Shown here piece after piece: positions 1,761 to 55,720 of a DNA stretch of 64,000 nucleotides. The translations under genes and the position numbers were made by a program. The notes beneath the pieces were generated by a model that did no database searches, was not told the DNA's origin, and saw only the letters and a list, made by a program, of their open reading frames with translations. Source of the DNA: Leeuwenhoekiella sp. (GTDB taxonomy: Bacteria > Bacteroidota > Bacteroidia > Flavobacteriales > Flavobacteriaceae); NCBI GenBank assembly GCA_049671285.1, contig JBATUQ010000052.1, positions 15,774 to 79,773 on the forward strand. The letters run 5' to 3'. Position 1 is the first letter of the stretch. Every line of letters starts with the position of its first letter.

Positions 1761-2738
1761 ATGCATTCAGAAATAATTATATATCAAACCGAAGACGGGC
1801 AGACCAAAATTCGAACTCGATTAGAAAATGAAACTGTTTGGTTGAATCAAGAACAAATGGCAGAGCTTTTTCAGAGAGATCGAAGTGTGATTACAAAACA
1901 TATCGGCAATATTTTCAAAGAAGGAGAATTGGAAAAAAAAAGCAATGTGCAAAATTTGCACATTGGTGGTTCAGACAAGCCTGTAAAGTTTTACAATCTT
2001 GATGTTATCATATCAGTAGGTTACCGGGTAAAATCGCTAAGAGGCACTCAATTTCGTATTTGGGCAACACAGCGGTTGCGAGAATATATCGTCAAGGGTT
2101 TTGCTATGAATGACGACCTGCTCAAGGAAGCAGGTGGTGGCAATTATTTTGATGAACTGCTAGCTCGCATCAGAGATATACGTTCATCCGAAAAAGTGTT
2201 TTGGCGTAAAGTGCTCGATATTTATGCAACCAGTATTGATTATGACGGTAAAGCCGAAGAATCCATCCCTTTTTTTAAGACGGTACAAAATAAAATGCAC
2301 TGGGCTGCACACGGGCAAGCGGCTGCAGAAACCATTTACAAACGTATTGACGCTAGTAAACCCCATTTGGGCCTAACCAATTTTAAAGGCGAAAAGCCAA
2401 CAAAAAAAGAAACTGAGGTTGCCAAAAACTACCTGAATGAAAAAGAACTGGATGTTCTCAACAGAATGGTTACAGCCTATTTGGAATTAGCAGAACTGCA
2501 AGCGCTGAACAGAAAGCCAATGTATATGAAAGATTGGATAAGCCGTTTAGATGACTTTCTTCAGATGACCGGAAACGACATCCTAACCAATGCAGGAAGC
2601 ATCAGTCATCAAAAAGCTTTGGACAAAGCTCATCAAGAATATGAAAAACATAGGGAAGAAACCAAAAATGAGCTTTCTAAAGCAGAAAAGGATTTCATAA
2701 AGCAAATAGAGTCTACTGCCAAAAAATTAAAGAAATAG
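1761..2738 (+). CDS. rhuM: RhuM-family protein (virulence/defence-island associated, DNA-binding)
   Basis: 325 aa. The N-terminus IIIYQTEDGQTKIRTRLENETVWLNQEQMAELFQRDRSVITKHI and the central YRVKSLRGTQFRIWATQRLREYIVKGF are the conserved core of the RhuM family. Confidence 0.85.
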   Translation: MHSEIIIYQTEDGQTKIRTRLENETVWLNQEQMAELFQRDRSVITKHIGNIFKEGELEKKSNVQNLHIGGSDKPVKFYNLDVIISVGYRVKSLRGTQFRIWATQRLREYIVKGFAMNDDLLKEAGGGNYFDELLARIRDIRSSEKVFWRKVLDIYATSIDYDGKAEESIPFFKTVQNKMHWAAHGQAAAETIYKRIDASKPHLGLTNFKGEKPTKKETEVAKNYLNEKELDVLNRMVTAYLELAELQALNRKPMYMKDWISRLDDFLQMTGNDILTNAGSISHQKALDKAHQEYEKHREETKNELSKAEKDFIKQIESTAKKLKK

Positions 2739-2815
2739 CCAATGCAAAATTTAGTACACATAGCATACAGCCAAACGACTAGGAGCAAAAGTTCTGATTT
2801 CTAAAAGAATAAAAA

Positions 2816-4156
2816 TTGAAAATAATAAGCTTCATAAAATCCCTCTACCTCCACAACCGTGTGTTTTACGCATTGGCCGGCATCGGTGTACTTTTCCTGT
2901 TTTCCTATTGGTATCAATGGTTGTATGTGGTAAGTTGGTTGCTGCTTTGGGCGTTGTTTTTGTTTTTTATCATTGATTGCGTTGCCCTATACCGAAGAAA
3001 AGACGGCCTTACCGCAAAACGCGATTTGCCGGAAAAGTTTTCGAACAGCGATCCCAATGAGGTACCGATTCTGCTGACCAATCAGTATAATTTTCGCGTC
3101 AGCGTAATTGCCATTGATGAGATCCCGGTACAGTTTCAGAAGCGGGATTTTGAGATGAAGATTTTGGTGGAGGCCAAAAAGAACAAACGCGTGGAGTACC
3201 ACTTGCGCCCCACCGAGCGTGGTCAGTACACCTTTGGGAACCTCAACCTTTACGTTCGGTCGCCGTTGTTGCTGGCGGTACGTCGGTATAAATTTCAAAA
3301 GGACCAGATGGTAAAGGTGTATCCGTCGTTCATCCAGATGAAGAAGTATGCCTTTCTCGCCATCGACAATAAGTTGACGCAATACGGTCTGAAGAAAATG
3401 CGTCGCATTGGCCACACGATGGAGTTTGAACAGATCAAGGAATACGTTCCCGGTGACGATGTGCGTACCATTAATTGGAAAGCCACGGCCAAACAGGGCA
3501 ACCTGATGGTCAATCAATATCAGGATGAAAAATCTCAGCCCATTTATTCGGTAATCGATGCGAGCCGGGTGATGAAAATGCCTTTTAAAGGCTTGACACT
3601 GTTGGATTATGCCATCAACAGTACGCTGGCCTTTAGTAATGTGGCACTAAAAAAAGGCGATAAAACCGGAATGCTCACCTTTAGTGAAAACATTCTGAAC
3701 CACCTCGCCGCAAGCAAAAAGAAAACCCACCTCAACCTGATTATGGAGGTGCTCTACAGCATCAACACCCGTTTTCTAGATAGTGATTTTGGTCGCTTGT
3801 ATGCCGAAGTGAAACATAAGATTACCCACCGCAGCCTGCTTTTGCTGTACACCAACTTTGAGCACATCACCGCACTCGAGCGGCAACTGCCCTATCTCAA
3901 AGGACTTTCGCAGAAACATGTACTGGTCGTGATCTTTTTCGAAAATTCGGAGCTGGACGATATAATTCAGAAGAAGGCGGAAAACACTCCTGAAATCTAC
4001 CACAAGGCCATTGCCCAAAAAATGGACTATGACAAAAAATTAATGGTCAAGGAACTGGAAAAGCACGGCATTCAGACCGTACTCACCAAGCCGGAAAACC
4101 TTACAGTAAATACCATCAACAAATATTTGGAAATCAAAGCCCGGGGTATTTTGTAA
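2816..4156 (+). CDS. DUF58 domain protein (MoxR-associated, vWA-like fold) with an N-terminal transmembrane extension
   Basis: The DUF58 core motif is present: GHTMEFEQIKEYVPGDDVRTINWKATAKQGNLMVNQYQDEKSQP. The N-terminus has two hydrophobic helices. No MoxR ATPase gene lies next to it in this window. Confidence 0.85.
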   Translation: MKIISFIKSLYLHNRVFYALAGIGVLFLFSYWYQWLYVVSWLLLWALFLFFIIDCVALYRRKDGLTAKRDLPEKFSNSDPNEVPILLTNQYNFRVSVIAIDEIPVQFQKRDFEMKILVEAKKNKRVEYHLRPTERGQYTFGNLNLYVRSPLLLAVRRYKFQKDQMVKVYPSFIQMKKYAFLAIDNKLTQYGLKKMRRIGHTMEFEQIKEYVPGDDVRTINWKATAKQGNLMVNQYQDEKSQPIYSVIDASRVMKMPFKGLTLLDYAINSTLAFSNVALKKGDKTGMLTFSENILNHLAASKKKTHLNLIMEVLYSINTRFLDSDFGRLYAEVKHKITHRSLLLLYTNFEHITALERQLPYLKGLSQKHVLVVIFFENSELDDIIQKKAENTPEIYHKAIAQKMDYDKKLMVKELEKHGIQTVLTKPENLTVNTINKYLEIKARGIL

Positions 4157-4240: not shown

Positions 4241-4609
4241 ATGAAAAAAGTCCTCATTTATATTTTGGGCGGGATCGTCGCCCTCTTCTTGTTTTTCTTT
4301 GTTTTTGTGTATTCGGTGCCGTATAGCGAGGGCACCCGTGCTGGCGAACTGATCAAATTCAGTCACAAAGGTGTGCTCGTCAAAACCTGGGAAGGCCAGA
4401 TCAGTCAAGGGATCAGCGGTGCACAGATTTTTGATTTCTCGGTGTTGGATAAGGAAGACGATGTCATTCAGAAATTACAGGATTATCAGGGCACCTATGT
4501 CAAACTCACCTACGTGGAGCGGTACACCACCTTTTTCTTCTGGGGCGACACCAAATATTTCATTACCGACGTAGTCAAGGAAAATTCACCACATTTTAAC
4601 CGGCAATAA
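4241..4609 (+). CDS. Hypothetical small membrane protein
   Basis: The listed ORF 4157-4609 most plausibly starts at the internal ATG (MKKVLIYILGGIVALFLFFFVFVY), giving a single N-terminal TM helix. No recognisable family. Confidence 0.45.
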   Translation: MKKVLIYILGGIVALFLFFFVFVYSVPYSEGTRAGELIKFSHKGVLVKTWEGQISQGISGAQIFDFSVLDKEDDVIQKLQDYQGTYVKLTYVERYTTFFFWGDTKYFITDVVKENSPHFNRQ

Positions 4610-5358
4610 TGTTTCAATCGGGCCTTGTACGGCATCCTTGCCAAAAGCCCTCAGGAGTTCCTTATCTTTACGTTCAAATTCAAAGAAATATTATATTGAG
4701 CATTTCCGAAAACCTAAAAAAATATAAGAACGAACTTCCCCAACAGGTCAAACTGGTTGCGGTATCAAAGACCAAACCTTTAGAAGATCTTCGTGAAGCA
4801 TACGATGCCGGTCAGCGCATTTTTGGTGAAAACAAAATCCAGGAAATGACCGATAAATGGGAAGCGCTTCCCAAAGATATCCAATGGCATATGATTGGTC
4901 ACGTGCAGACCAATAAGGTGAAGTATATGGCGCCTTATGTGAGCTTGATACACAGCGGCGACCGGCTCAAACTCTTCAAGGAAATCAACAAACAGGGCAA
5001 AAAAGCAGACCGCATAATCAATGTGCTGCTTCAGGTTAAGATTGCCGAAGAGGATAGTAAATTTGGAATGGATCCCAAAGAAGCCGAAGATTTTCTAAAC
5101 GGTGAACCACTGGCTGATTTTCCCTATGTAAACATTAAAGGTTTGATGGGAATGGCGTCTTTTGTTGAGGATGAGAAGCAATTGCATCGGGAGTTTGCGG
5201 TAGTTGAAAAGTTGTATGACCGCTTCCGCGAAAAACACGGTTTTACGATACTAAGTGCAGGAATGAGCGGAGATTATAAGATCGCCCTCGAGCACAAAAG
5301 CAATATGGTACGCATAGGCAGTGCTATTTTTGGCGCCCGTGAAGGAGGTGGATGGTAG
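4609..5358 (+). CDS. yggS: YggS-family pyridoxal-phosphate homeostasis protein (PLPHP)
   Basis: KLVAVSKTKPLEDLREAYDAGQRIFGENKIQEM...WHMIGHVQTNKVKYM is the YggS/alanine-racemase-N fold signature. The true start may be the in-frame TTG at about 4696 (MSISENLKKYK...), giving the usual ~220 aa. The listed ATG at 4609 abuts the previous stop. Confidence 0.85.
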   Translation: MFQSGLVRHPCQKPSGVPYLYVQIQRNIILSISENLKKYKNELPQQVKLVAVSKTKPLEDLREAYDAGQRIFGENKIQEMTDKWEALPKDIQWHMIGHVQTNKVKYMAPYVSLIHSGDRLKLFKEINKQGKKADRIINVLLQVKIAEEDSKFGMDPKEAEDFLNGEPLADFPYVNIKGLMGMASFVEDEKQLHREFAVVEKLYDRFREKHGFTILSAGMSGDYKIALEHKSNMVRIGSAIFGAREGGGW

Positions 5359-5380
5359 CGGATCAGTTGGCAGTCTTCGG

Positions 5381-5540
5381 TGGGCAGTGGCAGTCTTCAG
5401 TAGGCAGTGGCAGTCTTCGGTGGGCAGTGGCAGTCTTCGGTGGGCAGTGGCAGTCTTCGGTGGGCAGTGGCAGTCTCCAGTGGGCAGTGGCAGTCTTCAG
5501 TGGGCAGTGGCAGTCTTCAGTGGCAGTTTGCAGTTTTTTG
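5381..5540. repeat. 20-bp tandem minisatellite, ~8 copies (TGGGCAGTGGCAGTCTTCGG)n, intergenic
   Basis: Head-to-tail copies with only 1-2 nt variants (TCAG/TCGG/CCAG at the unit end). The unit length is not a multiple of 3. It lies between the yggS stop at 5358 and the exonuclease start at 5654. The listed ORFs 5321-5602, 5352-5582 and 5363-5641(-) are just translations of the repeat. Confidence 0.9.
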
Positions 5541-5653
5541 AAGTTCTTAAAATCACAGCAACCCTGCACAATTACGAAGTAGAATTTAAACATATTACTT
5601 AAATCCCGACCAAAAAACTTCAAACATTGAACTATAAACATTAACCAAATTAC

Positions 5654-7042
5654 GTGTACGCAGTTTTAGACATAGAGACCACAGGAGGAAAATTTAATGA
5701 AGAAGGCATCACGGAAATTGCTATTTACCGTTTTGATGGCCGTGAGGTGGTCGATCAGTTTATCAGCCTTGTGAATCCCGAGCAGCCCATTCAACCTTTT
5801 GTGGTTCAACTCACTGGGATCAACAATAAAATGCTGCGCAATGCCCCCAAATTTTATGAGGTGGCCAAACGTATCATCGAAATCACAAACGAATGCACTA
5901 TCGTTGCCCATAATGCACCCTTTGACTACCGCATCCTCCGGTTGGAATTTGACCGTCTTGGATATGATTACCAACGTAAAAGCCTGTGTACCGTTGACCT
6001 TTCCAAAGAGCTGCTGCCCGAAGAAGAAAGCCACAGTCTGGGCAAACTTGCCCGTAGTTTGGGAATACCAATGACAGACCGCCACCGGGCAAGCGGTGAT
6101 GCGCTGGCCACTGTAAAACTTTTTAAGCTCTTGCTCAACCGCGACACCAAAAAGAAAATCATACAACAGAGCGTCAACCTCAACGTACCAAAAAAAATGG
6201 AGACCAAACTCCGTGATTTGCTGGAAACCGTACCAAGCACCACCGGAGTTTTCTACCTGCATAATGCCAAGGGGAAGATAATATTTATCGGCAGAAGCCG
6301 AAATATGAAAAAAAGGCTCAATCAATATTTTACCAATGAAAACAAAAAATCCCGACAAATACAAGAGCGTACCGCTGCCGTAAGCGTAGAGGAAACCGGA
6401 AGTGAACTCATTGCAACCCTGAAGGAATATGAAGAGCTGAAGCAGAACAGGCCATATTACAACACCTTAAAAAGGGAGCAGTTTACTAGCCAGTTGGTCA
6501 TAAAAATCGATCCAGACGGATTTGCATCGCTGGTCGTAGAGCGTCCCGATGACCGCCCCGACCCTATCGCCTATTTTGCAAACAGCAGCAGTGCCAAAAA
6601 GCACCTTCTCGACTATGTTGACAAGTATGACCTCTGCCTGAACAGAACAAGCATGAAGAAAGACAAAGGGGCTTGCGAGAATTACAAGTTGGGAACGTGC
6701 AAGGGAGCCTGTGTTGGCAATGAGGAGCCGTCAAGTTACAATGCAAGGGTAGAAGATTTGATACGGGAACATTCCTTTTTCGGGCGGGATTTGGCTATTA
6801 TTGACCGGGGTCGCAACGCGAAAGAGCGTGCAGTAATTTTGATTGAAAATGGTAAACTGAGAGGTATGGGTTACTTTAACCTTAATTTTCAGATCAACGA
6901 TCCACAAATACTGCATAAGATCATTACCCCAATGAAGGATAATGCGGTTTTTCGGTTTATCATCCAACGACACTTACGTTCCAAGAAAGTCCTGAAAATT
7001 ATCGATCTTAAGGCCATCAATCAATCTGAAACCAAAAACTAG
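5654..7042 (+). CDS. DnaQ-like (DEDDh) 3'-5' exonuclease fused to a GIY-YIG nuclease domain (Cho/UvrC-N-like)
   Basis: The N-terminus MYAVLDIETTGG...IVAHNAPFDYRIL...HRASGDALAT gives the Exo I, II and III motifs. The central GVFYLHNAKGKIIFIGRSRNMKKRLNQYF is the GIY-YIG core. This fusion is common in Bacteroidota. Confidence 0.8.
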   Translation: MYAVLDIETTGGKFNEEGITEIAIYRFDGREVVDQFISLVNPEQPIQPFVVQLTGINNKMLRNAPKFYEVAKRIIEITNECTIVAHNAPFDYRILRLEFDRLGYDYQRKSLCTVDLSKELLPEEESHSLGKLARSLGIPMTDRHRASGDALATVKLFKLLLNRDTKKKIIQQSVNLNVPKKMETKLRDLLETVPSTTGVFYLHNAKGKIIFIGRSRNMKKRLNQYFTNENKKSRQIQERTAAVSVEETGSELIATLKEYEELKQNRPYYNTLKREQFTSQLVIKIDPDGFASLVVERPDDRPDPIAYFANSSSAKKHLLDYVDKYDLCLNRTSMKKDKGACENYKLGTCKGACVGNEEPSSYNARVEDLIREHSFFGRDLAIIDRGRNAKERAVILIENGKLRGMGYFNLNFQINDPQILHKIITPMKDNAVFRFIIQRHLRSKKVLKIIDLKAINQSETKN

Positions 7043-7056
7043 CAGTTCTCCTGCCC

Positions 7057-7893
7057 GTGATAGAACGAACGAAACATACCTGGCGTACCAAACTTCATGA
7101 AGTCATTTATGAAGCTGACACTACTGAGGGCAAGTCGTTTGATGTCATACTCTTGATCCTGATTTTTGTCAGCATCATTTTGGTAATGCTGGAAAGCGTG
7201 AGCCACCTTAACGCTGAATACGGCAAGTGGTTTATCATTGGCGAATGGATCATTACCATTTTTTTCACCATAGAATATATTCTGCGTATCATCTCGATAA
7301 AGAAGCCTTCCAATTACATTTTCAGTTTTTATGGTATAATCGATCTCCTTTCGACCATCCCCCTTTATCTTACTTTTTTCTTTGTAGGGACCAATGCCCT
7401 ACTTGCCATCCGGGCTCTACGCTTGTTAAGGGTTTTTCGCATCTTAAAGATCAGCAGGTATGTGGGCGAAGGTGAAAAATTAAAAAGGGCTTTGTCTGAC
7501 AGCCGGCCCAAAATTTTGGTCTTTTTATTCGCAGTTTTAGTGCTTTCGGTGATTGCGGGTACGGTAATGTATTTGGTAGAAGGGCCTGAACATGGATTTG
7601 TCAATATCCCGATCAGTATTTATTGGTGTATCGTGACGTTAACCACGGTAGGTTTCGGGGATATCGCACCCGTTACTGCATTGGGACAATTTGTGGCCAC
7701 GGTAATCATGATCATGGGTTACGGAATCATTGCCGTACCCACTGGCATCGTTAGTGCAGAAATGTCAAAAGATAAATCTACCGGCACCGAAACCAAGATG
7801 AATACCCAAACATGTTTTAATTGCGGTGCTTCCACCCATCAGAACGATGCTATTTACTGCCACAAATGTGGTAATAATCTACATCATGACTAA
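7057..7893 (+). CDS. Voltage-gated K+ channel (6-TM ion-transport family) with a C-terminal CxxC...CxxC zinc-ribbon tail
   Basis: An S4-like RALRLLRVFRILKISRY segment, a pore/selectivity filter TLTTVGFGD, several hydrophobic segments, and a C-terminal CFNCGASTHQNDAIYCHKCG. Confidence 0.8.
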   Translation: MIERTKHTWRTKLHEVIYEADTTEGKSFDVILLILIFVSIILVMLESVSHLNAEYGKWFIIGEWIITIFFTIEYILRIISIKKPSNYIFSFYGIIDLLSTIPLYLTFFFVGTNALLAIRALRLLRVFRILKISRYVGEGEKLKRALSDSRPKILVFLFAVLVLSVIAGTVMYLVEGPEHGFVNIPISIYWCIVTLTTVGFGDIAPVTALGQFVATVIMIMGYGIIAVPTGIVSAEMSKDKSTGTETKMNTQTCFNCGASTHQNDAIYCHKCGNNLHHD

Positions 7894-14683: not shown

Positions 14684-16339
14684 TTATTCCGCCAGCAACT
14701 CCCGGGCCTGCTCCCGTGAAGTACTGGTAATCGTTTTACCACCCAGCATTTCGGCAAGCTCGAGAATGCGTTGTTCCTGATCCAGCTGACTGATCTGTGT
14801 GATCGTTTTATCCTTTTGATCATTTTTGTAAACCTTGAGATGCGTGCTTCCCTGACCAGCAATCTGCGGTAGGTGCGTGATGCTTACGAGTTGCATATGC
14901 TTACCCATTTCTTTCATTATCGTTCCCATTTTTAGGGCAACCTCACCACTAACACCGGTGTCAATTTCATCAAAAATTAAAGTAGGGAGTTGTGCATAAC
15001 CGCTCAAAATTGCTTTTATCGCCAGCATAATTCTCGACAGTTCTCCACCAGACGCTGCTTTGGCCATTTCCTGAGCCCGCATTCCCTTATTGGCCGAAAA
15101 TAAGAATTGCAAATTGTCCTTTCCATTATCCCGCAATTCTTTGGCCGTTTCCAATTTTAAGTCAAAACGGGCATTGGGCATACCCACTTTACTGAGAATA
15201 TCTTCTAGTTTTTCCGCGAGTGGTTGCAGGGCTTTTTTACGCTTTCGCGAAATGTCTTCCGCCAACTTTTCCAGCGATTCCTTTGCTGCGGAAGCTTCTC
15301 GTTTGAGCTTTTCTATCGTGCTGTCAAGATCATTTAGGTCCTGGACTTCGGCATCGAGGGCGTCACGTATTTCAATCAGTTCTTCAACAGTCCCGGCATT
15401 GTGCTTCTTCTGAAGGTCAAAAAGCAACTTCAGCCGTGTTTCTGCTTTTAATAGGGTTTCCGGATCACTTTCTGTGTTTTCCAGGATTTCTTCAAGGGTT
15501 TCCGCAATATCGGCAAGCTCTATGCTAACGCTGGCAACGCGGTTATCCATATCTTCCAAGGCTTTGCTGAAACCCGAGATTTTGCCCAGCCCCTGTTTAA
15601 CCGCAATTAAATTTGGGCTGATCCCCACATCTTCCTGAACGATCAGGTTTAGCGCTTCAGCAAGGGTTTCGGTAATCTGGCCCACGTTGCTCAACGTGTC
15701 GTATGTCGCTTCAAGCTCTTCCTGTTCGCCAGGTTTCAACTTGGCCTCTAGCAGTTCGCTCAACAAATGGTTGTTATATGCTTCTTCCGTAAGCGCTTCG
15801 GCTTTTTTAGCTTCCAGTTGCTTGATATTCCGTAGTAGTTTTTGGTACGCTGAAAATTTTTCGCCGTAGGCCAAAACAACAGCATGGGTACCAGCAAATG
15901 CATCAACCACCTGAAACTGAAAGGAATTATCGACCACCTCCAGCGTCTGGTGCTGACTGTGTATATCGATCAATTTTTCGCCCAAAGCAGAAAGCGCGTT
16001 TAGGGTTGCCGGTGTATCGTTTATAAAAGCGCGACTTTTTCCGGAAGGTAAAATCTCACGCCTGATGATCGTCTGCACATCATAATCCAGATCCTGCTCC
16101 TCAAATAGCGGTTGCAGTTGCAATTTATTCAAGTCAAAATAGGCTTCGATGACACATTTTAACTCGGGGTCGCCAACGCTGGAAAGATCTGCCCGTTTTC
16201 CAAGAATAAGGCCAAGGGCACCCAATAAAATGGATTTACCGGCACCGGTCTCCCCGGTAATGACCGTGAAGCCCGTTGTGAAGTCCAGACGGACCTCCTC
16301 AATCAGGGCGTAATTATTAATATGAAGTTGGGTGAGCAC
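14684..16339 (-). CDS. recN: DNA repair protein RecN
   Basis: LTQLHINNYALIEEVRLDFTTGFTVITGETGAGKSILLGALGLILG is the Walker A head. Long coiled coil. C-terminal signature/Walker B (GGELSRIMLAIK...LIFDEIDTGVSG). The start is taken as the in-frame GTG at 16339 (VLTQLHINNY), because the upstream extension overlaps the next gene. Confidence 0.9.
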   Translation of the reverse strand: MLTQLHINNYALIEEVRLDFTTGFTVITGETGAGKSILLGALGLILGKRADLSSVGDPELKCVIEAYFDLNKLQLQPLFEEQDLDYDVQTIIRREILPSGKSRAFINDTPATLNALSALGEKLIDIHSQHQTLEVVDNSFQFQVVDAFAGTHAVVLAYGEKFSAYQKLLRNIKQLEAKKAEALTEEAYNNHLLSELLEAKLKPGEQEELEATYDTLSNVGQITETLAEALNLIVQEDVGISPNLIAVKQGLGKISGFSKALEDMDNRVASVSIELADIAETLEEILENTESDPETLLKAETRLKLLFDLQKKHNAGTVEELIEIRDALDAEVQDLNDLDSTIEKLKREASAAKESLEKLAEDISRKRKKALQPLAEKLEDILSKVGMPNARFDLKLETAKELRDNGKDNLQFLFSANKGMRAQEMAKAASGGELSRIMLAIKAILSGYAQLPTLIFDEIDTGVSGEVALKMGTIMKEMGKHMQLVSITHLPQIAGQGSTHLKVYKNDQKDKTITQISQLDQEQRILELAEMLGGKTITSTSREQARELLAE

Positions 16340-16415
16340 GGCCGTGGATTTTCTTTTCTTAGATTGCCAAAGATAGGAGTGATTACGGTAACTATCAAAG
16401 AAATCCGCCGCTGCC

Positions 16416-17303
16416 TTAAAATTTGATATCCTGCCAAAATTGTGACTTGGTAGGTGCCACACGGGTCAGCGTATTCATCACGCTCTTAATATCGGTTAGT
16501 GGGCCAGCACTGAAGATTTTGACAACTTCCTCTGCCTTTGCATCAAAGAAAACCCGGGTCAGGTAATTGTTGGGGCGGCGATTGTACATCTCGTCAAAAA
16601 GTCCCAGGGAAACGGCGATGCCGGCCTTGGCCTCGTCCGGGTTTTCTACCATATAGTCGAGCCCGTTGCGGTGGTACGCATACATAATATCGTGGAACAA
16701 TAGAAAATTTGGTGATATCAAATCGTTGTTCAAGGAAAACCGGTTTTGTGTTCCCCCTTGCGACTGCCAGGCTGACGAGCCACCCGATTGGGCGGTACTC
16801 ACAATTCTTTTGGCTTCCTCAAAATAGGGTTTTCCGCCATTTGGCGAAAAAGTGTCCGCATCAAAACCAATGATGGTGTAGGCATAAAAGGCCAAGGTGG
16901 AAATAAGGTTGGAATCAAAAGAATTGGGGTTGTAGTTCAACGGCTGAAACTCGGTGTACCGAAAATTAAAATCCCGGTCGTTATAGTTAAATACCGTGGT
17001 GTTGTAGGTACCGTTATACACCGGCCGTGATGATTGCACCTGAATACTGGCGGTAAAGGCATCACTGTCAATGGCCGAAACAATAATCACCAAATTGCAG
17101 TTTATGCGCTCCTGCTGTTTGTAATCAACATCCGTCCAGACCGTGTTGTTCATAAATTCCTCGATCTGGGTCCGCAGGGTTTTAAATACTTGCAGGTTGG
17201 ACTGCCCCGTTTGTTCTGCGTTGATAGAAACCGAACAGTTGAGTTCTTGTGCCTTGCCCAATACAGCAGTAAGAAACAGGAAAAGAAACGTGATTTTACG
17301 CAT
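16416..17303 (-). CDS. DUF4835-family secreted protein
   Basis: Signal peptide MRKITFLFLFLTAVLGKAQ at the internal ATG. The position between coaBC and recN matches the conserved Bacteroidota placement of DUF4835. Family call from context and composition only. Confidence 0.55.
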   Translation of the reverse strand: MRKITFLFLFLTAVLGKAQELNCSVSINAEQTGQSNLQVFKTLRTQIEEFMNNTVWTDVDYKQQERINCNLVIIVSAIDSDAFTASIQVQSSRPVYNGTYNTTVFNYNDRDFNFRYTEFQPLNYNPNSFDSNLISTLAFYAYTIIGFDADTFSPNGGKPYFEEAKRIVSTAQSGGSSAWQSQGGTQNRFSLNNDLISPNFLLFHDIMYAYHRNGLDYMVENPDEAKAGIAVSLGLFDEMYNRRPNNYLTRVFFDAKAEEVVKIFSAGPLTDIKSVMNTLTRVAPTKSQFWQDIKF

Positions 17304-21268: not shown

Positions 21269-22018
21269 GTGATCAGATTTTTCATTTTTGTTAGTTTTCT
21301 AAGCTTGATTGCCTGCGGCGAAAACAAATCAGTCACCCAGAAAATCACAGCTTCCCAGACAACAGTTTCAGATTCCATCCCTGCTGATGCTGAGATTGAA
21401 GCGTTCATAGCTCCGTATAAAAACCGCATTGATCAGGAGATGGACAGCGTGCTGGCCTATGCTCCCGCGACCTATACTAAAAGCAACGGCGAGTACAATA
21501 CCGCCATTGGCAATATGATGGCCGATGCCGTGCTAGAACTTGCCGATACCATTTTTGCTGCCCGTACCGGGAAACACATTGATGCGGTCTTGCTGAACAG
21601 CGGTGGGATTCGCGCCCCAATCAATAAAGGAAACATTACCACCCGAAGCGCTTACCAGTTAATGCCTTTCGAAAACAGTTTGGTCGTCGTTGAACTAGAC
21701 GCCCAAATGATTCAAGCGATGTTTGAATACTTGAGCTGTGGAAAAGCGCATCCAATCTCAGGTATGGAAATCGAACTTGACGACAACGGAAAACTCGCCA
21801 ACAACACCATACACGGTGAACCGCTGGATGATTCCAAAACCTATTTCATAGCCACCAGTGATTATTTACAAAATGGCGGCGACGGTATGGAATTCTTAAC
21901 CGATCCCGTTTCAAAAACTGATCTGGACTATAAAATCAGGAATATCCTGATCGATTATTTCAGCAAATACGACACCATCGCCCCGGTTAGGGATAGTCGG
22001 TTTATAAAACGGGACTAG
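21269..22018 (+). CDS. 5'-nucleotidase C-terminal-domain lipoprotein
   Basis: Lipoprotein signal FLSLIACGENKS. The 5'-nucleotidase C-domain is recognisable from NTAIGNMMADAVLE...LLNSGGIRAPINKGNITTRSAYQLMPFENSLVVVELDAQMI. Confidence 0.75.
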   Translation: MIRFFIFVSFLSLIACGENKSVTQKITASQTTVSDSIPADAEIEAFIAPYKNRIDQEMDSVLAYAPATYTKSNGEYNTAIGNMMADAVLELADTIFAARTGKHIDAVLLNSGGIRAPINKGNITTRSAYQLMPFENSLVVVELDAQMIQAMFEYLSCGKAHPISGMEIELDDNGKLANNTIHGEPLDDSKTYFIATSDYLQNGGDGMEFLTDPVSKTDLDYKIRNILIDYFSKYDTIAPVRDSRFIKRD

Positions 22019-22083
22019 GGCGGTTCTCTTGGTACGCTTCCTCACCTTGTTCGGACGCTACTCGAGAACCTTATCAAAAGGAA

Positions 22084-22203
22084 AACAAAAGGTGTCCGAG
22101 TAGGGTTATTAAAGCAGAGCGAGACCACCCGTACCGAGGAAACCGGAACAAAAAAAGGTGTCCGAGTAGGGTGGTCAAAGCGGAGCGAGACTACCCGTAC
22201 CGA
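22084..22203. repeat. Two tandem ~62-bp direct repeats (~85% identical), intergenic
   Basis: AAAAGGTGTCCGAGTAGGGT(T/G)(A/G)T(T/C)AAAGC(A/G)GAGCGAGAC(C/T)ACCCGTACCGAGGA occurs twice in tandem. A GGTTCTC...GAGAACC inverted repeat (22023-22071) lies just upstream. They sit between the two 5'-nucleotidase-domain genes. Confidence 0.6.
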
Positions 22204-22228
22204 GGACCCGGGAACTAAAACTTACATT

Positions 22229-23137
22229 ATGCATCGCAGAACCTTCGTTAAAAATTCAGTGGCTGCATCCCTGCTAACGGGAATGACAACAAACAGCTAT
22301 GGCGCACTACTTCCCAAAGCAGATAAGCACATCACGATTTTACATACCAATGATGTGCATAGCCACATTGAGCCTTTTGGTCCCGATGAAGGCCGAAATG
22401 CCAACAAAGGTGGAGTTGCCCGCCGGTTGACGCTTATTCAAAAAGTACGTGCCGAAAATCCCAATACGCTCCTGCTCGATGCCGGGGATATTTTTCAGGG
22501 GACGCCCTATTTTAACTTCTATGGTGGCGAACTCGAATTTAAACTGATGTCCAAATTGGGTTATGACGCGGCGACCATTGGCAATCACGATTTTGATAAT
22601 GGCGTGGGCGGTCTTGCCGCTCAGATGCCGCACGCCGGGTTCAAAATGCTTTCGGCCAACTATGACTTTACAAATACCGCGATGGAAGGCCTGACCAAAC
22701 CGTATCAGGTTTTTGTAAAAGATGATGTGAAAATCGGTGTTTTCGGGATTGGGATCGCGCTCGACGGACTGGTCAACAAAACGCAATATCGGGAAACAAA
22801 ATATATGGATCCTATCGAGCGAACTCAAGATATGACCCGTATTTTACGCGAGGAAGAAAATTGCGATCTGGTCATCTGCCTTTCACATTTGGGTTATAAA
22901 TACGACAGTGATAAAATCTCTGATGTTGCCTTAGCGGCGAAAACAAGCGGGATTGACCTCATCATAGGCGGTCATACACATACTTTTTTGTCCCAACCCA
23001 CTGTCACCGATAATAAGCGGGGAAAAAAAGTCTTGATTAACCAAGTAGGCTGGGCCGGAATCAATCTGGGCCGGATTGATTTTTATTTGGATGCAAGCGG
23101 TAAAGTGAGTTCAGAAGAACTGATAATTGAGGTTTAG
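22229..23137 (+). CDS. Metallophosphoesterase (5'-nucleotidase N-terminal/calcineurin-like domain), Tat-like signal
   Basis: MHRRTFVKNSVAASLLTG is a twin-arginine-type signal. ILHTNDVHSHIEPFG, DAGDIFQGT and GNHDFD are the dimetal-phosphoesterase motifs. Confidence 0.8.
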   Translation: MHRRTFVKNSVAASLLTGMTTNSYGALLPKADKHITILHTNDVHSHIEPFGPDEGRNANKGGVARRLTLIQKVRAENPNTLLLDAGDIFQGTPYFNFYGGELEFKLMSKLGYDAATIGNHDFDNGVGGLAAQMPHAGFKMLSANYDFTNTAMEGLTKPYQVFVKDDVKIGVFGIGIALDGLVNKTQYRETKYMDPIERTQDMTRILREEENCDLVICLSHLGYKYDSDKISDVALAAKTSGIDLIIGGHTHTFLSQPTVTDNKRGKKVLINQVGWAGINLGRIDFYLDASGKVSSEELIIEV

Positions 23138-26646: not shown

Positions 26647-28650
<2,004 letters not shown>

Positions 28651-28943
28651 TTATTTGTTATTCTTTCAGTGTTCTATATTATTAATTCACTATGCTTGCT
28701 GTGGTTAACTCATTAGTGCAACTGTCCTTTTTATTGTGGTCTTAACTGAGTTGTTAATAATGAACGGTCTTACAGGTCTGTAATTTATTAATCTTTCCCC
28801 TTCTTTAATGCGTTTGTGCGGTACTTTTCTAAGTTCCGTTTTCTTTGTGTAGAATTTCCTCATCACCCCAATCCTAAACTTCACTTTACCCTTGTCCCGA
28901 GAGGTGTAGGGTCTTGTGAAATAGGTTTTTATCTTGAGGTAAA

Positions 28944-29147
28944 TTACTGGTTTGTGATACCGGGCCAACTCCCTTCCGTTGTTGGAATTATTGGTCTTAA
29001 TTTAAAAGCGATTAAAAGAAGCGTGGTGGCCGTGTCATATAGAAATAAGTTCCCCGCGGAAATCACACCAACCAGATAGTTCCCAAAGACATACATCCAG
29101 AATCTGGGTCTGGACAAATAGAAAACTTCTTTAAACGTCAGCTTCAT
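28944..29147 (-). pseudogene. Possible N-terminal fragment of a UbiA-family prenyltransferase
   Basis: 67 codons, MKLTFKEVFYLSRPRFWMYVFGNYLVGVISAG..., resemble the first TM segment of UbiA-type prenyltransferases, then stop. No downstream continuation in any frame. Confidence 0.3.
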
Positions 29148-29377
29148 ATTGTCCCAAAAATACCATGATAAAACTTGAAATCATCGTGTTTACGGAATCT
29201 TTGTTCAATTTTTTCAGGAAAAGTGTAAACGGAAAGTTGTAGCCCTGAAACTTGAACTTGTAGCTTTAAAATTTTGAGCAAGAGAGTCCTCGACCATGCT
29301 CAGACTGCTCTTATAAATTGAACAAAGCTTGAGAAGGCAGAATCGAAAACTGTAAGTGTAATCAGTCACGTAGATAT

Positions 29378-29885
29378 CTAATAAAAAAGCAAACCCCAAC
29401 CCCAATAATTACTGTGGAATTGCGAGGGCTCTAACAATTTGGTTGAGTCACCGTTATGGTTCAAAAATTCCTGCTCTGAAAGTTGGCTGTGAAGATCGCC
29501 TGATTTTAAATTGAGGATAGCAAAGCCGTTAGTCGTCTTCGTGTACAGAATATCACGCTCTTCGTAAAGTGTCTCAATCAAACTCGTCAACCCAAAGCCG
29601 TCATCGTTTTCGTTTCTTTTTTCAACATTTGCATAGTGAAAATCAATCATAGTAATATAGTACTGCGAGTTCAATGGCACCCTGCCATAATCCCCCAATC
29701 CGTTATTTCCAGTACGAAAAGCGCCAAATGAACAATGCCACAAACAACACAGGAAAAAGGATTCTTTTCTTTACCGAAGTACCTCTCCTAGCTTTAGCTA
29801 TTAAAAACCTGAGCAGAAAACCGTAAACAATGGCTAAAATTGAAATACGGATGATTTCAAAGATGAGATGTAATAAAACAAACAT
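29378..29885 (-). other. Two overlapping minus-strand ORFs (60 aa membrane-like + 121 aa) that could be one frameshifted gene; unknown function
   Basis: ORFs 29703-29885 and 29378-29743 overlap by 41 nt in different frames. The first is a hydrophobic helix. No recognisable motifs. Lies in a gene-poor, decayed region. Confidence 0.2.
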
Positions 29886-30781
29886 TATGGCTCTAATTTA
29901 AAGTTTACGGTATCTGTCTATTCTTTGCCATAGGTACACACGGGCTAAAAATCAAATTTATTTAATCAATCTCAACGGGAATAGGTCCTCCTAGCGATAC
30001 AAAACCACCACCAATTTCTTCTATATTCACATCCAATTCATCACTGGTTTTAACGCCAACAATATTGACATCGATCTCATCAGAACCATTTAGTTTAACG
30101 CTGATGGTTCCATCTTCGTTTATAGGTATTAAACCATAGTTTACATCGGAGGCTAACTTGGGATAATATCAAAATTTTTAATCGTTGAGAAAGTTAGGTT
30201 AACCGCTATTACGGTCAATATAATTTTCGTGAATTTATCTGTTTTCATTTTCGCTTTTTTTAGTGATATTATTGAACTCCAATTTCTATACCCTTTTGAT
30301 ATCTGCTCGGGCAATTCTCTATTGAGCTTTTTAGCTCATAATATTTACACGGCATCCTCAAAATGGTTAAGTACATTGGTTCTCGAGACCAACAAATATG
30401 GTTGGCTCCAACTAATATAACCAGCAACAACTATTCTTTTTACTAGTCTGTATTTGTCTGTTTCGTCTTTATTCCTTTTTCGGTTGTACTTATTTAAAAA
30501 ACTTCGTTTAATTGATTACAAAGAGCCTAGCAGTAGGTATTATGATTACCTCTTTGCTGACGATTTCTAATCATATTAGTTGATTCTAACTATATGGAAT
30601 TGAGCTTTGTTTTTTTTGAACTTTTGGCATAAATTTAATGATACGAGAATTGATTAAAAGAAAATTTCTATTCAATTGGACTGTATTACAATAGTTTATA
30701 CTCAATCAGAGTAATCTACAATTTATTACTTCGAATTAGTCAGTATAATTAATTTACTCGCTTATTAAGGTGTGAAATTCC

Positions 30782-31105
30782 TTACTTAATTTCAGATGAT
30801 CTTATTGCTGTTCCAGATGCCACAATGAAAAGCATAGATTTTCCTCCACCAGAAAATTCACTATAATCTAAATCTACTCCGATAACTGCATTGGCTCCTA
30901 CTAAAAATGCCTCTTTACGCAATTCGTTAAGGACTGTTTCCTTTGACTCGCGAAGAGTATTTTGTAAAGTTTCACTCCGACCTCCAATCACATCACGAAC
31001 TCCTGCAAATAAATCCTTAAAAACATTCATTCCAAAAGCACATTCTGCTGTTAATATATCTATTCGTTGATCAATTTTAAAGTCAACGTGACTTTCTGTG
31101 GTCAA
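30782..31105 (-). CDS. YbjQ/UPF0145 (DUF74) domain protein
   Basis: [35 protein letters not shown]...[34 protein letters not shown] aligns along its length with E. coli YbjQ. The TTG start is listed, but the frame stays open upstream to 31270 (see the zinc-ribbon finding). Confidence 0.7.
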
Positions 31106-31202
31106 AGTGATTTTCTTAATTTCTTCTAAGGTTAGGTTTTTTACTTCGTCCAGCTTTTTTTCTTTGTTTAAATATGCCGCCTCTGCCTGCTTTCGATTTT
31201 GC

Positions 31203-39563: not shown

Positions 39564-40280
39564 CTATCCCTCTTTTGTATTGTTAAGGCCCAGTTGGGCT
39601 TTTAGTCTTTCCAAATCGTCGTCGGCTTTGGCAACCGTGGTATCGGCGGCCTTGTCAAGTTCGTCATCAATGCTTTTTGAGGCATTGGCGATATCGCCGT
39701 AAGCCTCCGCAAGAGCTTCTTCCTGAGCGACCTTTTCCTTCATACGCTCCAGCATTGAAACCGTACCGCTGCTGTCAATTTCAGACATCTGCTTGTTCAG
39801 GTTTTTAGTTGCCGTGCTTACTTTTACGCGTGCTTTGAGCGTTTTAAGTTCGTTTTCCCAGTTGCTGATATTCGACTTTATGGTTTGAATATTCTTCTGT
39901 AGTTGAGCGACATTAGTATCAAACTTATCAGATTCCTTTTTTGCACGGTCCACGTGCTGCTGGGCTTCTTCTTTTTTGGTCAAAGCCTCTTTCGCCAAAC
40001 GATCAGCTTCGGCAGCATCCATCTCTTTGCTGTGCGCTTTTTTGAGGATGATGATGGCCTTGCTCTGGTAGTCTTCGGCTTTGTTTAAGTATTCGTCCTG
40101 GTCGTTCTTCGCACGAATTGCCAAGGCTTTGACCTGCGCGAGTGCTTCCAGGCTTTTCTCGAGATCCGCTTTCATATCGCGAATGCCCTGCTCGGTCATC
40201 TTGATGGGATCTTCCATATTGTCAATGGCCGAATTGGCTTCGGCCTCGCCTATCCTAAATAATCTTTTAAAAATGTTCAT
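39564..40280 (-). CDS. pspA: PspA/IM30/Vipp1-family protein (bacterial ESCRT-III superfamily)
   Basis: MNIFKRLFRIGEAEANSAIDNMEDPIKMTEQGIRDMKADLEKSLEALAQVKA follows the PspA consensus (M-IF-R...EDPEKML-Q-IRDM). 238 aa, all-helical, heptad-rich. Confidence 0.85.
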   Translation of the reverse strand: MNIFKRLFRIGEAEANSAIDNMEDPIKMTEQGIRDMKADLEKSLEALAQVKALAIRAKNDQDEYLNKAEDYQSKAIIILKKAHSKEMDAAEADRLAKEALTKKEEAQQHVDRAKKESDKFDTNVAQLQKNIQTIKSNISNWENELKTLKARVKVSTATKNLNKQMSEIDSSGTVSMLERMKEKVAQEEALAEAYGDIANASKSIDDELDKAADTTVAKADDDLERLKAQLGLNNTKEG

Positions 40281-40287
40281 GGTTCTT

Positions 40288-40325
40288 ATTATTACTATTG
40301 TTATTGTTATTGCTATTGCTATTCT
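40288..40325 (-). repeat. (TATTGY)6 on plus strand = (RCAATA)n in pspA sense, ending 8 nt before the pspA start codon
   Basis: TATTACTATTGTTATTGTTATTGCTATTGCTATTC. In the pspA-sense RNA it reads as ARN triplets (AAU AGC AAU AAC ...). Confidence 0.7.
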
Positions 40326-45224: not shown

Positions 45225-45590
45225 TATAAATTTTCGCAAAAATAAGGCATTATAACTTATCTGTTGAATTCTTGGCGATTTATAACAGCGAAGGTATCTT
45301 TGAGGCGATAACTATTTTTTGGGCCAAAGGCATAACAGTTTTTATGATCAGCGCTTTTCAACTTTTCTGAAGCTTTTTTCTTGTCGTTTACATAGTCGTA
45401 TTGATCGGTTTTGCTTTCAGCGGAAAAAGAAAAAAGGTTGAAAACCTGAGAACCATTATTGCAATGCCTGCCGGACTTTTGTTCGGATGGCTGGGTTGGA
45501 CCGCTTTGAATAATCAATTAAAGCTTTGGTCAAGCAACTCAAAAGAGTTGGAAATCAGAAAGCAAATGGAAATATAAAAAGCCAGGAATA

Positions 45591-45620
45591 ACAATAGCAA
45601 TAGCAATAGCAATAGCAATT
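45591..45620 (+). repeat. (CAATAG)5 hexanucleotide microsatellite 25 nt upstream of the dapD start
   Basis: AACAATAGCAATAGCAATAGCAATAGCAATT. The same hexamer family, (CAATAG/CAATAA)n in gene sense, lies immediately 5' of pspA at 40288-40325. Confidence 0.7.
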
Positions 45621-45645
45621 AAAATAACAATTCAAATAAACAACC

Positions 45646-55646: not shown

Positions 55647-55720
55647 GGCGAGGTAGCTCAGCTGGTTAGAGCGTCGGATTCATAACCCGGAGGTCGGGGG
55701 ATCGTGCCCCCCTCTCGCTA
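55647..55720 (+). tRNA. tRNA with CAT anticodon (Met / fMet / Ile2-lysidine class)
   Basis: GGCGAGG-TA-GCTC-AGCTGGTTA-GAGC-G-TCGGA-TTCATAA-CCCGG-AGGTC-GGGGG-ATCGTGC-CCCCC-TCTCGCT-A. Canonical D-arm. The 7-nt anticodon loop has T33 and CAT at 34-36. The T-loop has swapped A54/T58. The acceptor has two G-U pairs. CCA is not encoded. Confidence 0.75.

Follow-up and report, generated by a model that had tools for sequence, protein, structure and literature searches.

We analysed a 64,000-nucleotide stretch of a metagenome-assembled genome (MAG) of Leeuwenhoekiella sp., hereafter the window, in which a 20-bp tandem array separates a yggS gene from a gene for an exonuclease/GIY-YIG protein. Our results indicate that the array is probably a simple-sequence tract that lacks structure and has expanded unusually far. 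It would belong to a strand-specific family of repeats of restricted lineage distribution, which we term CAGT tracts, and would have been amplified locally. In the model we favour, CAGT tracts would be runs of 6-7-nt sub-repeats that populate the intergenic DNA of some marine Flavobacteriaceae, typically starting ~0-20 nt past the stop codon of an upstream gene in the same orientation and with their G+T-rich strand as the sense one. Here, a block of three sub-repeats (20 nt) would have been reiterated about eight times, most likely via replication slippage or unequal recombination. This amplification would have taken place inside a junction that is 28-41 bp long in other Leeuwenhoekiella and, together with extra A/T-rich sequence, would have brought the spacer to 295 bp.

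Anatomy and folding of the array

The array runs head-to-tail with a period of 20 bp. Seven units match TGGGCAGTGGCAGTCTTCGG with 0-2 mismatches at exact 20-bp spacing (5381-5520), and 100 shuffles gave a chance expectation of 0 for such an array. Tandem Repeats Finder reported 5368-5527 with a period of 20, 8.1 copies, 94% matches and no indels. When the degenerate end units are included, the whole tract covers 177 bp (5364-5540); it starts 5 nt 3' of the yggS stop and ends 113 nt 5' of the GTG of the exonuclease/GIY-YIG gene. The features of the junction are listed below (ORF, open reading frame).

4609..5358, + strand: yggS (PLP-binding YggS family); ORF with a match to TIGR00044 (E=2.6e-55, above the curated cut-off) and a TAG stop at 5356-5358.
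5364..5380, + strand: leading degenerate unit CAGTTGGCAGTCTTCGG with a 1-nt indel; seen in the sequence and in a relaxed tract scan starting at 5364, and also at the end of Logan contig L017.
5381..5520, + strand: seven in-phase 20-bp units, consensus TGGGCAGTGGCAGTCTTCRG; from pattern matches and Tandem Repeats Finder.
5521..5540, + strand: trailing degenerate unit TGGCAGTTTGCAGTTTTTTG, also in Logan contig L016; 5526-5540 is the left arm of a 15-nt inverted repeat.
5541..5653, + strand: A/T-rich, non-repetitive spacer tail of 113 nt; 5611-5625 is the inverted complement of 5526-5540.
5654..7042, + strand: DEDD (DnaQ-like) exonuclease / GIY-YIG (UvrC N-terminal-like) gene with a GTG start; from its ORF and domain matches.

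An earlier reading of this DNA, the original prediction, had described eight copies of a 20-bp unit at 5381-5654. The seven in-phase matches and the 8.1 copies of Tandem Repeats Finder bear out the existence of the array, and eight is a fair rounding of seven full units plus the leading 1-nt-indel unit and the trailing degenerate unit. Those coordinates located the array, but they omitted the first partial unit (5364-5380) and took in the 113-nt non-repetitive tail. The distance given to the next start codon was right, with the GTG at 5654, and we agree that this is not a CRISPR array: one unit directly follows another, with no spacers.

A unit is made up of three sub-repeats, GGGCAGT + GGCAGT + CTTCRGT (7+6+7 nt), whose last four bases are CAGT or CGGT, and GGCAGT is present twice inside every unit. 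The units vary at position 2 (G/A), position 17 (T/C) and position 19 (G/A), and units 3 and 4 are identical. Within the window the core GGCAGTGGCAG is confined to the array, and the + strand of the 180-nt array is composed of 71 G, 50 T, 35 C and 24 A. With more than two head-to-tail copies of a unit between 10 and 100 bp long, at high identity and above chance, the array is a minisatellite. Its ~7-nt tandem units with a G-rich strand are likewise those of the intergenic heptameric simple-sequence-repeat (SSR) class.

RNA of the array folded worse than dinucleotide shuffles on both strands (sense, z = +2.68; antisense, z = +4.51), and the ideas of a hairpin, riboswitch or terminator were dropped since both strands are less stable than the shuffles. 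A structured RNA, a terminator or a palindrome of the repetitive extragenic palindromic (REP) type would show as a stable fold or as a hit to a curated RNA family, and the array had neither. An Rfam scan of the array region, the related loci and the whole window found nothing relevant (a single tRNA at 55647), and an intrinsic-terminator scan found none in the spacer. The usual G4Hunter cut-off is about 1.2. The array had a mean score of 0.54 and a maximum of 1.04 in any 25-nt window, compared with 1.14 for GGGAATC and 2.29 for GGGGATT under the same scoring. Thus, the array resembles the heptameric SSR class in position, not in structure, and its scores stay below the G-quadruplex threshold.

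The sole inverted repeat of the spacer is the low-complexity 15-mer pair 5526-5540/5611-5625, which is 93% complementary with a 70-nt loop. It connects the array's 3' end with the far part of the tail and could be either the boundary of a MITE-like insertion or a chance low-complexity match.

We also considered a coding reading. Three frames have ORFs of 76-93 amino acids across the array, and this reading was rejected when none of the three gave a Pfam match. The array is almost certainly non-coding, as had been claimed, given that result and the lack of any tract of the family within genes; the earlier argument from the 20-bp unit length alone is insufficient, as the crossing ORFs demonstrate.

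The orthologous junction and the CAGT-tract family

Next, we compared the junction with that of relatives. At five loci of other Leeuwenhoekiella species the yggS-exonuclease gap is only 28-41 bp and has no tract, with gene order kept over ~20 kb; a syntenic Ala_racemase_N gene holds the yggS position. The spacer is therefore ~255 bp longer here than in relatives. Short motifs of these junctions, AAGTAGAATTTAAA, AAGTAGRATTTAAA and TTCAAACATT, are recognisable by eye in the spacer tail, and neither the ~1.1 Mb of fetched loci nor the rest of the window had any significant similarity to the 113-nt tail. Because the relatives' junctions are 28-41 bp long and without a tract, we take the 295-bp spacer to be a lineage-specific expansion of a probable operon junction, and the sequence makes it probable that the yggS/exonuclease pair is such a junction into which the tract grew. 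The exonuclease/GIY-YIG protein itself is 100% identical to the NCBI MAG entry 'exonuclease domain-containing protein [Leeuwenhoekiella sp.]' and matches Pfam RNase_T + UvrC_M + GIY-YIG. Its GTG start at 5654 is backed by orthologues with the N-terminus MYAILDLET, and in a homologue search its next nearest relatives were only 62% identical.

The array was then sought elsewhere. A 19-mer from its unit gave 15 single matches in 185,579 species genomes, about the number estimated by chance, of which four or five lie in Bacteroidota intergenic DNA; none of these genomes has more than one copy. The unit-junction pattern had no match in genome or metagenome collections, and viral contigs had no match to the family 19-mer. 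The 24-mer CAGTTGGCAGTGGCAGTCTTCAGT or a one-base variant of it was found in L. blandensis MED217 (L005), Spongiivirga citrea (L012) and two Bacteroidota MAGs (L008, L009). All these matches are intergenic and lie inside longer runs of like sub-repeats. A slightly degenerate 19-mer matched at least 120 metagenome loci, among them 45 that are low-GC and intergenic with extended CAGT tracts, 34 that have the 19-mer but no extended tract, and ~41 that represent one conserved gut-bacterium coding sequence, which served only as a negative control. The sub-repeats of the CAGT tracts include TGGCAGT, GGCAGT, AGCAGT, CTTCAGT and TTGCAGT. The tract of the window is the longest retrieved (171 nt under the relaxed definition) and the only one seen with a regular 20-nt higher-order period.

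The tracts are biased in position and strand. Every tract with at least four CAGT repeats is intergenic, and none lies within a gene. The upstream gene runs in the direction of the G+T-rich strand in 36 cases and against it in 11 (p=3e-4), and tracts without the search seed gave a ratio of 19:6. The 5' ORF is nearer than the 3' ORF for 27/36 tracts (median 23 vs 227 nt, p=0.004), and 16 tracts begin no more than 20 nt after the upstream stop codon. Tract-bearing loci are also rich in further tracts: we found 32 in 334 kb (~1 per 10 kb), whereas 528 kb of other loci and 107 kb of loci from other Leeuwenhoekiella had none. The 64-kb window holds one CAGT tract only.

Near-identical strains differ in tract indels or in sub-repeat composition (L045/L086 and L076/L031). 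This indel variation of related tracts agrees with the earlier description of the array as a variable-number tandem repeat (VNTR)-type sequence. At L087/L103, orthologous genes of two organisms (ending ...QMMNKMK*) both have a CAGT tract 2-9 nt from the stop; the coding flanks are ~80% alike by eye and the non-coding flanks are unalignable.

Several tracts have surroundings of their own. In four metagenome contigs with GC of 0.30-0.35 (L027, L094, L122 and L123), the tract TTGGCAGTTGGCAGTGGCAGTTTTCAGT lies within a strongly conserved non-coding block of ~300 bp, and the tract itself appears conserved, not variable. In L. blandensis MED217 (L005), positions 2100-3230 hold at least three tandem composite units of ~330 bp, ~90% identical, downstream of a 398-amino-acid gene. 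Each unit opens with a CAGT/GTTTGNG tract that varies and continues with a conserved block containing a hairpin, and further tracts occur in the next intergenic region (4720-4931). Comparison of this 330-bp unit with the window found similarity only in the tract itself. At L061 (~7784-7870) and near the seed match of L039/L041, an inverted tract copy follows or the tract lies in the loop of a long inverted repeat, a hairpin potential that is absent from the window's array.

Taken together, these observations fit an origin of the array by slippage. The tract is probably transcribed with yggS, as an unstructured G/U-rich 3' untranslated region or intercistronic segment, because no terminator intervenes. 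Apart from making the spacer longer and potentially variable, it would contribute little or nothing sequence-specific to regulation.

Several points weigh against this explanation. Identical sub-repeats, and even identical 19-24-mers, are found in different genera, and the tract at the L087/L103 junction has been kept despite unalignable non-coding flanks; neither is obviously predicted by purely neutral slippage. Function, not tolerance, could lie behind the bias in strand and stop-codon proximity, and the tract statistics come from gene calls by a simple longest-ORF heuristic at loci some of which are mutually related. One tract per 64 kb is far below the density of tract-rich genomes, so genome-wide membership of the family is not established for this organism. 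Copy number at the array locus may vary, a property that is so far presumed rather than observed.

Alternative explanations

The original prediction had placed the array in the promoter region of the exonuclease/GIY-YIG gene, as a copy-number-variable promoter element or a reiterated regulator-binding site that would tune transcription through spacing or site number. We consider this unlikely. It would fit 20-bp units that recur about every two helical turns, the internal duplication of GGCAGT in each unit and an array lying upstream of, and co-directional with, the exonuclease gene, and intergenic SSRs can act so in other bacteria (discussion of PMC4692102). However, 113 nt separate the array from the start codon and 5 nt separate it from the upstream stop, its neighbours include no regulator gene, and equivalent tracts both follow and precede unrelated genes. 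A sigma-70-type promoter scan of 5000-6000 found none, and no Bacteroidetes-type TAnnTTTG element (-33/-7 promoter) was noticed in the spacer in a by-eye check. Phase-variable promoter SSRs lie between promoter elements or at the 5' end of the regulated gene, and the array does neither. The promoter-spacing reading is thus unsupported, because the position and strand of the array follow a family-wide pattern that is independent of the downstream gene, because there is no recognisable promoter and because relatives manage with a junction of 28-41 bp, which leaves no room for such an element. The polarity of the tracts could instead reflect function at the end of the upstream gene: CAGT tracts would be 3'-end elements, serving as a G/U-rich platform for proteins that bind single-stranded RNA or DNA or as an antisense Rho-loading site that would keep antisense transcription out of the upstream gene, and the eightfold array would be an amplified yggS/exonuclease insulator. 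This we regard as rather unlikely. The strand bias and stop-codon proximity, the conservation of sub-repeat sequences across genera, the persistence of a tract at the L087/L103 orthologous junction with its diverged flanks and the location of one tract in a conserved non-coding block (the L027 set) all speak for it. So does the strong depletion of secondary structure, greatest on the antisense strand (z = +4.5), which is unstructured with a base composition of C 39% and G 19%. On the other hand, 19% G is not a markedly low content for a rut site, where Rho would load, and stop-codon proximity is explicable if the promoter-proximal half of spacers is under constraint. Between strains the tracts are hypervariable, most of the Leeuwenhoekiella loci examined have none, and no function has been demonstrated for the analogous Xanthomonas and Nostoc repeats. 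In its boldest form, to which we give little credence, CAGT tracts would be previously undescribed, structure-free, post-stop G/U-rich 3'-end modules of marine Flavobacteriaceae that recruit a single-strand-binding factor or load Rho against antisense transcripts. If this were true, the eightfold array would serve as an amplified insulator and decouple the exonuclease gene from yggS, and, together with the Xanthomonas and Nostoc heptamers, the tracts would point to a convergent, phylum-spanning role of post-stop-codon heptameric repeats.

Other alternatives concern how the array came to be in the assembly or in the genome. Exact-protein look-ups found identical flanking proteins in one other assembly only (Logan, SRR28062985), whose contigs break within the array: L017 ends in its first units and L016 begins in its last units. 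The flanks and outer units are corroborated by SRR28062985, and the internal copy number comes from the MAG assembly alone. These breaks, and the identity of units 3 and 4, would be expected if the assembled copy number or regularity were an artefact of short-read MAG assembly. We judge the chance of this to be small, since both flanks are syntenic with relatives, the outer units and the order of their variants agree between the two assemblies, and perfect periodicity extends over at most ~75 bp (flanked by unique variants at 5402 and 5477), a length that 150-nt reads could presumably span. Part of the spacer might alternatively be a small mobile, MITE-like insertion, a ~100-bp segment between the 15-nt inverted repeats that brought or seeded the tract. 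The 93% complementary arms around a 70-nt loop, the ~255 bp of extra spacer and the ~330-bp composite repeated units to which the L. blandensis tracts belong are in its favour. However, the arms are low-complexity T-runs and A-runs, the right arm overlaps TTCAAACATT, a motif that visual comparison also places in the relatives' ancestral short junction, the tail has no significant match in the ~1.1 Mb of fetched loci or the rest of the window, and no target-site duplication was seen by eye; we find an insertion very unlikely. Finally, eight 20-bp direct repeats followed by a 113-nt A/T-rich segment have the look of replication-origin iterons beside an unwinding segment, an identity that is hardly credible here: no Rep or DnaA gene is adjacent, no DnaA box lies within 4 kb, there is no GC-skew inflection at 5.4 kb, the genes on both sides are co-directional, and the context is a housekeeping chromosomal one, syntenic with array-free relatives.

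We also considered the array units as target sites of an RNA-guided dCas12f/sigma-E system (PMC13472631). The unit is unmatched elsewhere in the window, hence there is no candidate guide, and this idea was rejected.

Relation to known repeats and other repeats of the window

The closest described counterparts are the G-rich intergenic heptameric repeats reported by Rehm et al. 2015 (PMC4692102), GGGAATC in Xanthomonas and GGGGA(C/T)T in Nostoc/Anabaena. About 90% of the Xanthomonas repeats and 68% of the Nostoc repeats are intergenic, mostly between aligned ORFs, and in Xanthomonas they lie on average 28 nt from the 5' ORF vs 160 nt from the downstream ORF. They are transcribed, variable between close relatives and present in many copies per genome in carrier lineages; their function is unknown and polymerase slippage is suspected. 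The same report cites heptanucleotide repeats of Calothrix PCC 7601 and a general over-representation of heptameric repeats in bacteria. Like these heptamers, CAGT tracts have ~7-nt units and a G-rich strand, are intergenic between aligned ORFs and nearer to the 5' ORF, and vary in length and sequence. Unlike them, CAGT tracts belong to another phylum, have an NNNCAGT motif with mixed 6- and 7-nt sub-units and show weak quadruplex potential, and the array of the window has a higher-order 20-bp unit repeated eight times and is one tract in 64 kb.

Resemblances to other classes are more limited. The array is head-to-tail and intergenic, with 10-100-bp units and few variants, like the bacterial VNTR or minisatellite loci used in multiple-locus VNTR analysis (MLVA) typing (Flavobacterium psychrophilum, PMC4501049); MLVA loci, however, are defined by copy-number polymorphism, whereas the array is known from one assembled length and its unit is a compound simple sequence. 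Like the promoter or 5'-region contingency loci of phase variation, it is a slippage-prone tandem repeat upstream of a gene. Contingency-locus repeats have 1-7-nt units and are located in the 5' untranslated region, in the 5' part of the coding sequence or between promoter hexamers, whereas the array spans 177 bp, abuts the upstream stop and has no recognisable promoter around it. With plasmid or origin iterons it shares ~20-bp direct repeats next to A/T-rich DNA, but it has no initiator gene, DnaA boxes or skew switch, and its context is a chromosomal operon junction. The array thus belongs to an already known kind of bacterial repeat, with a phylum and a motif that are new to the literature searched: neither the CAGT motif nor such repeats in this phylum were found described there, and searches by sequence string returned only primer coincidences.

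Taken by itself, the array is a bacterial minisatellite of an ordinary sort, found in one uncultured genome, and its practical relevance is as a candidate length-variable marker and as a spot where assemblies break. Of wider interest, the Flavobacteriaceae CAGT tracts share the unexplained polarity of the Xanthomonas and Nostoc heptamers: they are on the sense strand, after the stop codon and nearer to the 5' ORF. The same polarity in a third phylum, with a motif of low G-quadruplex potential, suggests that the bias is independent of quadruplex formation. It points to either a general process of slippage plus tolerance or a shared 3'-end function. Tracts appear to be abundant in L. blandensis MED217, which would make it a candidate organism in which to test tract polarity.

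The window contains further repeats and gaps. Gaps of ~1-1.5 kb without a long ORF (simple ORF heuristic, at least 90 amino acids) lie in 15550-17034 and 28407-31174. At 22080-22220, between the ORFs 21440-22018 and 22229-23137, a 66-bp unit is repeated 2.2 times at 85% identity, with no Rfam match. At 40286-40325 and 45587-45640, directly 5' of start codons, lie tandem hexamers that read (AATAGC/AATAAC)n along the sense strand of the downstream gene; the first set precedes the minus-strand gene 39564-40280 and the second a dapD-like ORF starting at ~45649. These hexamers represent a second, A-rich type of intergenic simple sequence, in a 5'-leader position.

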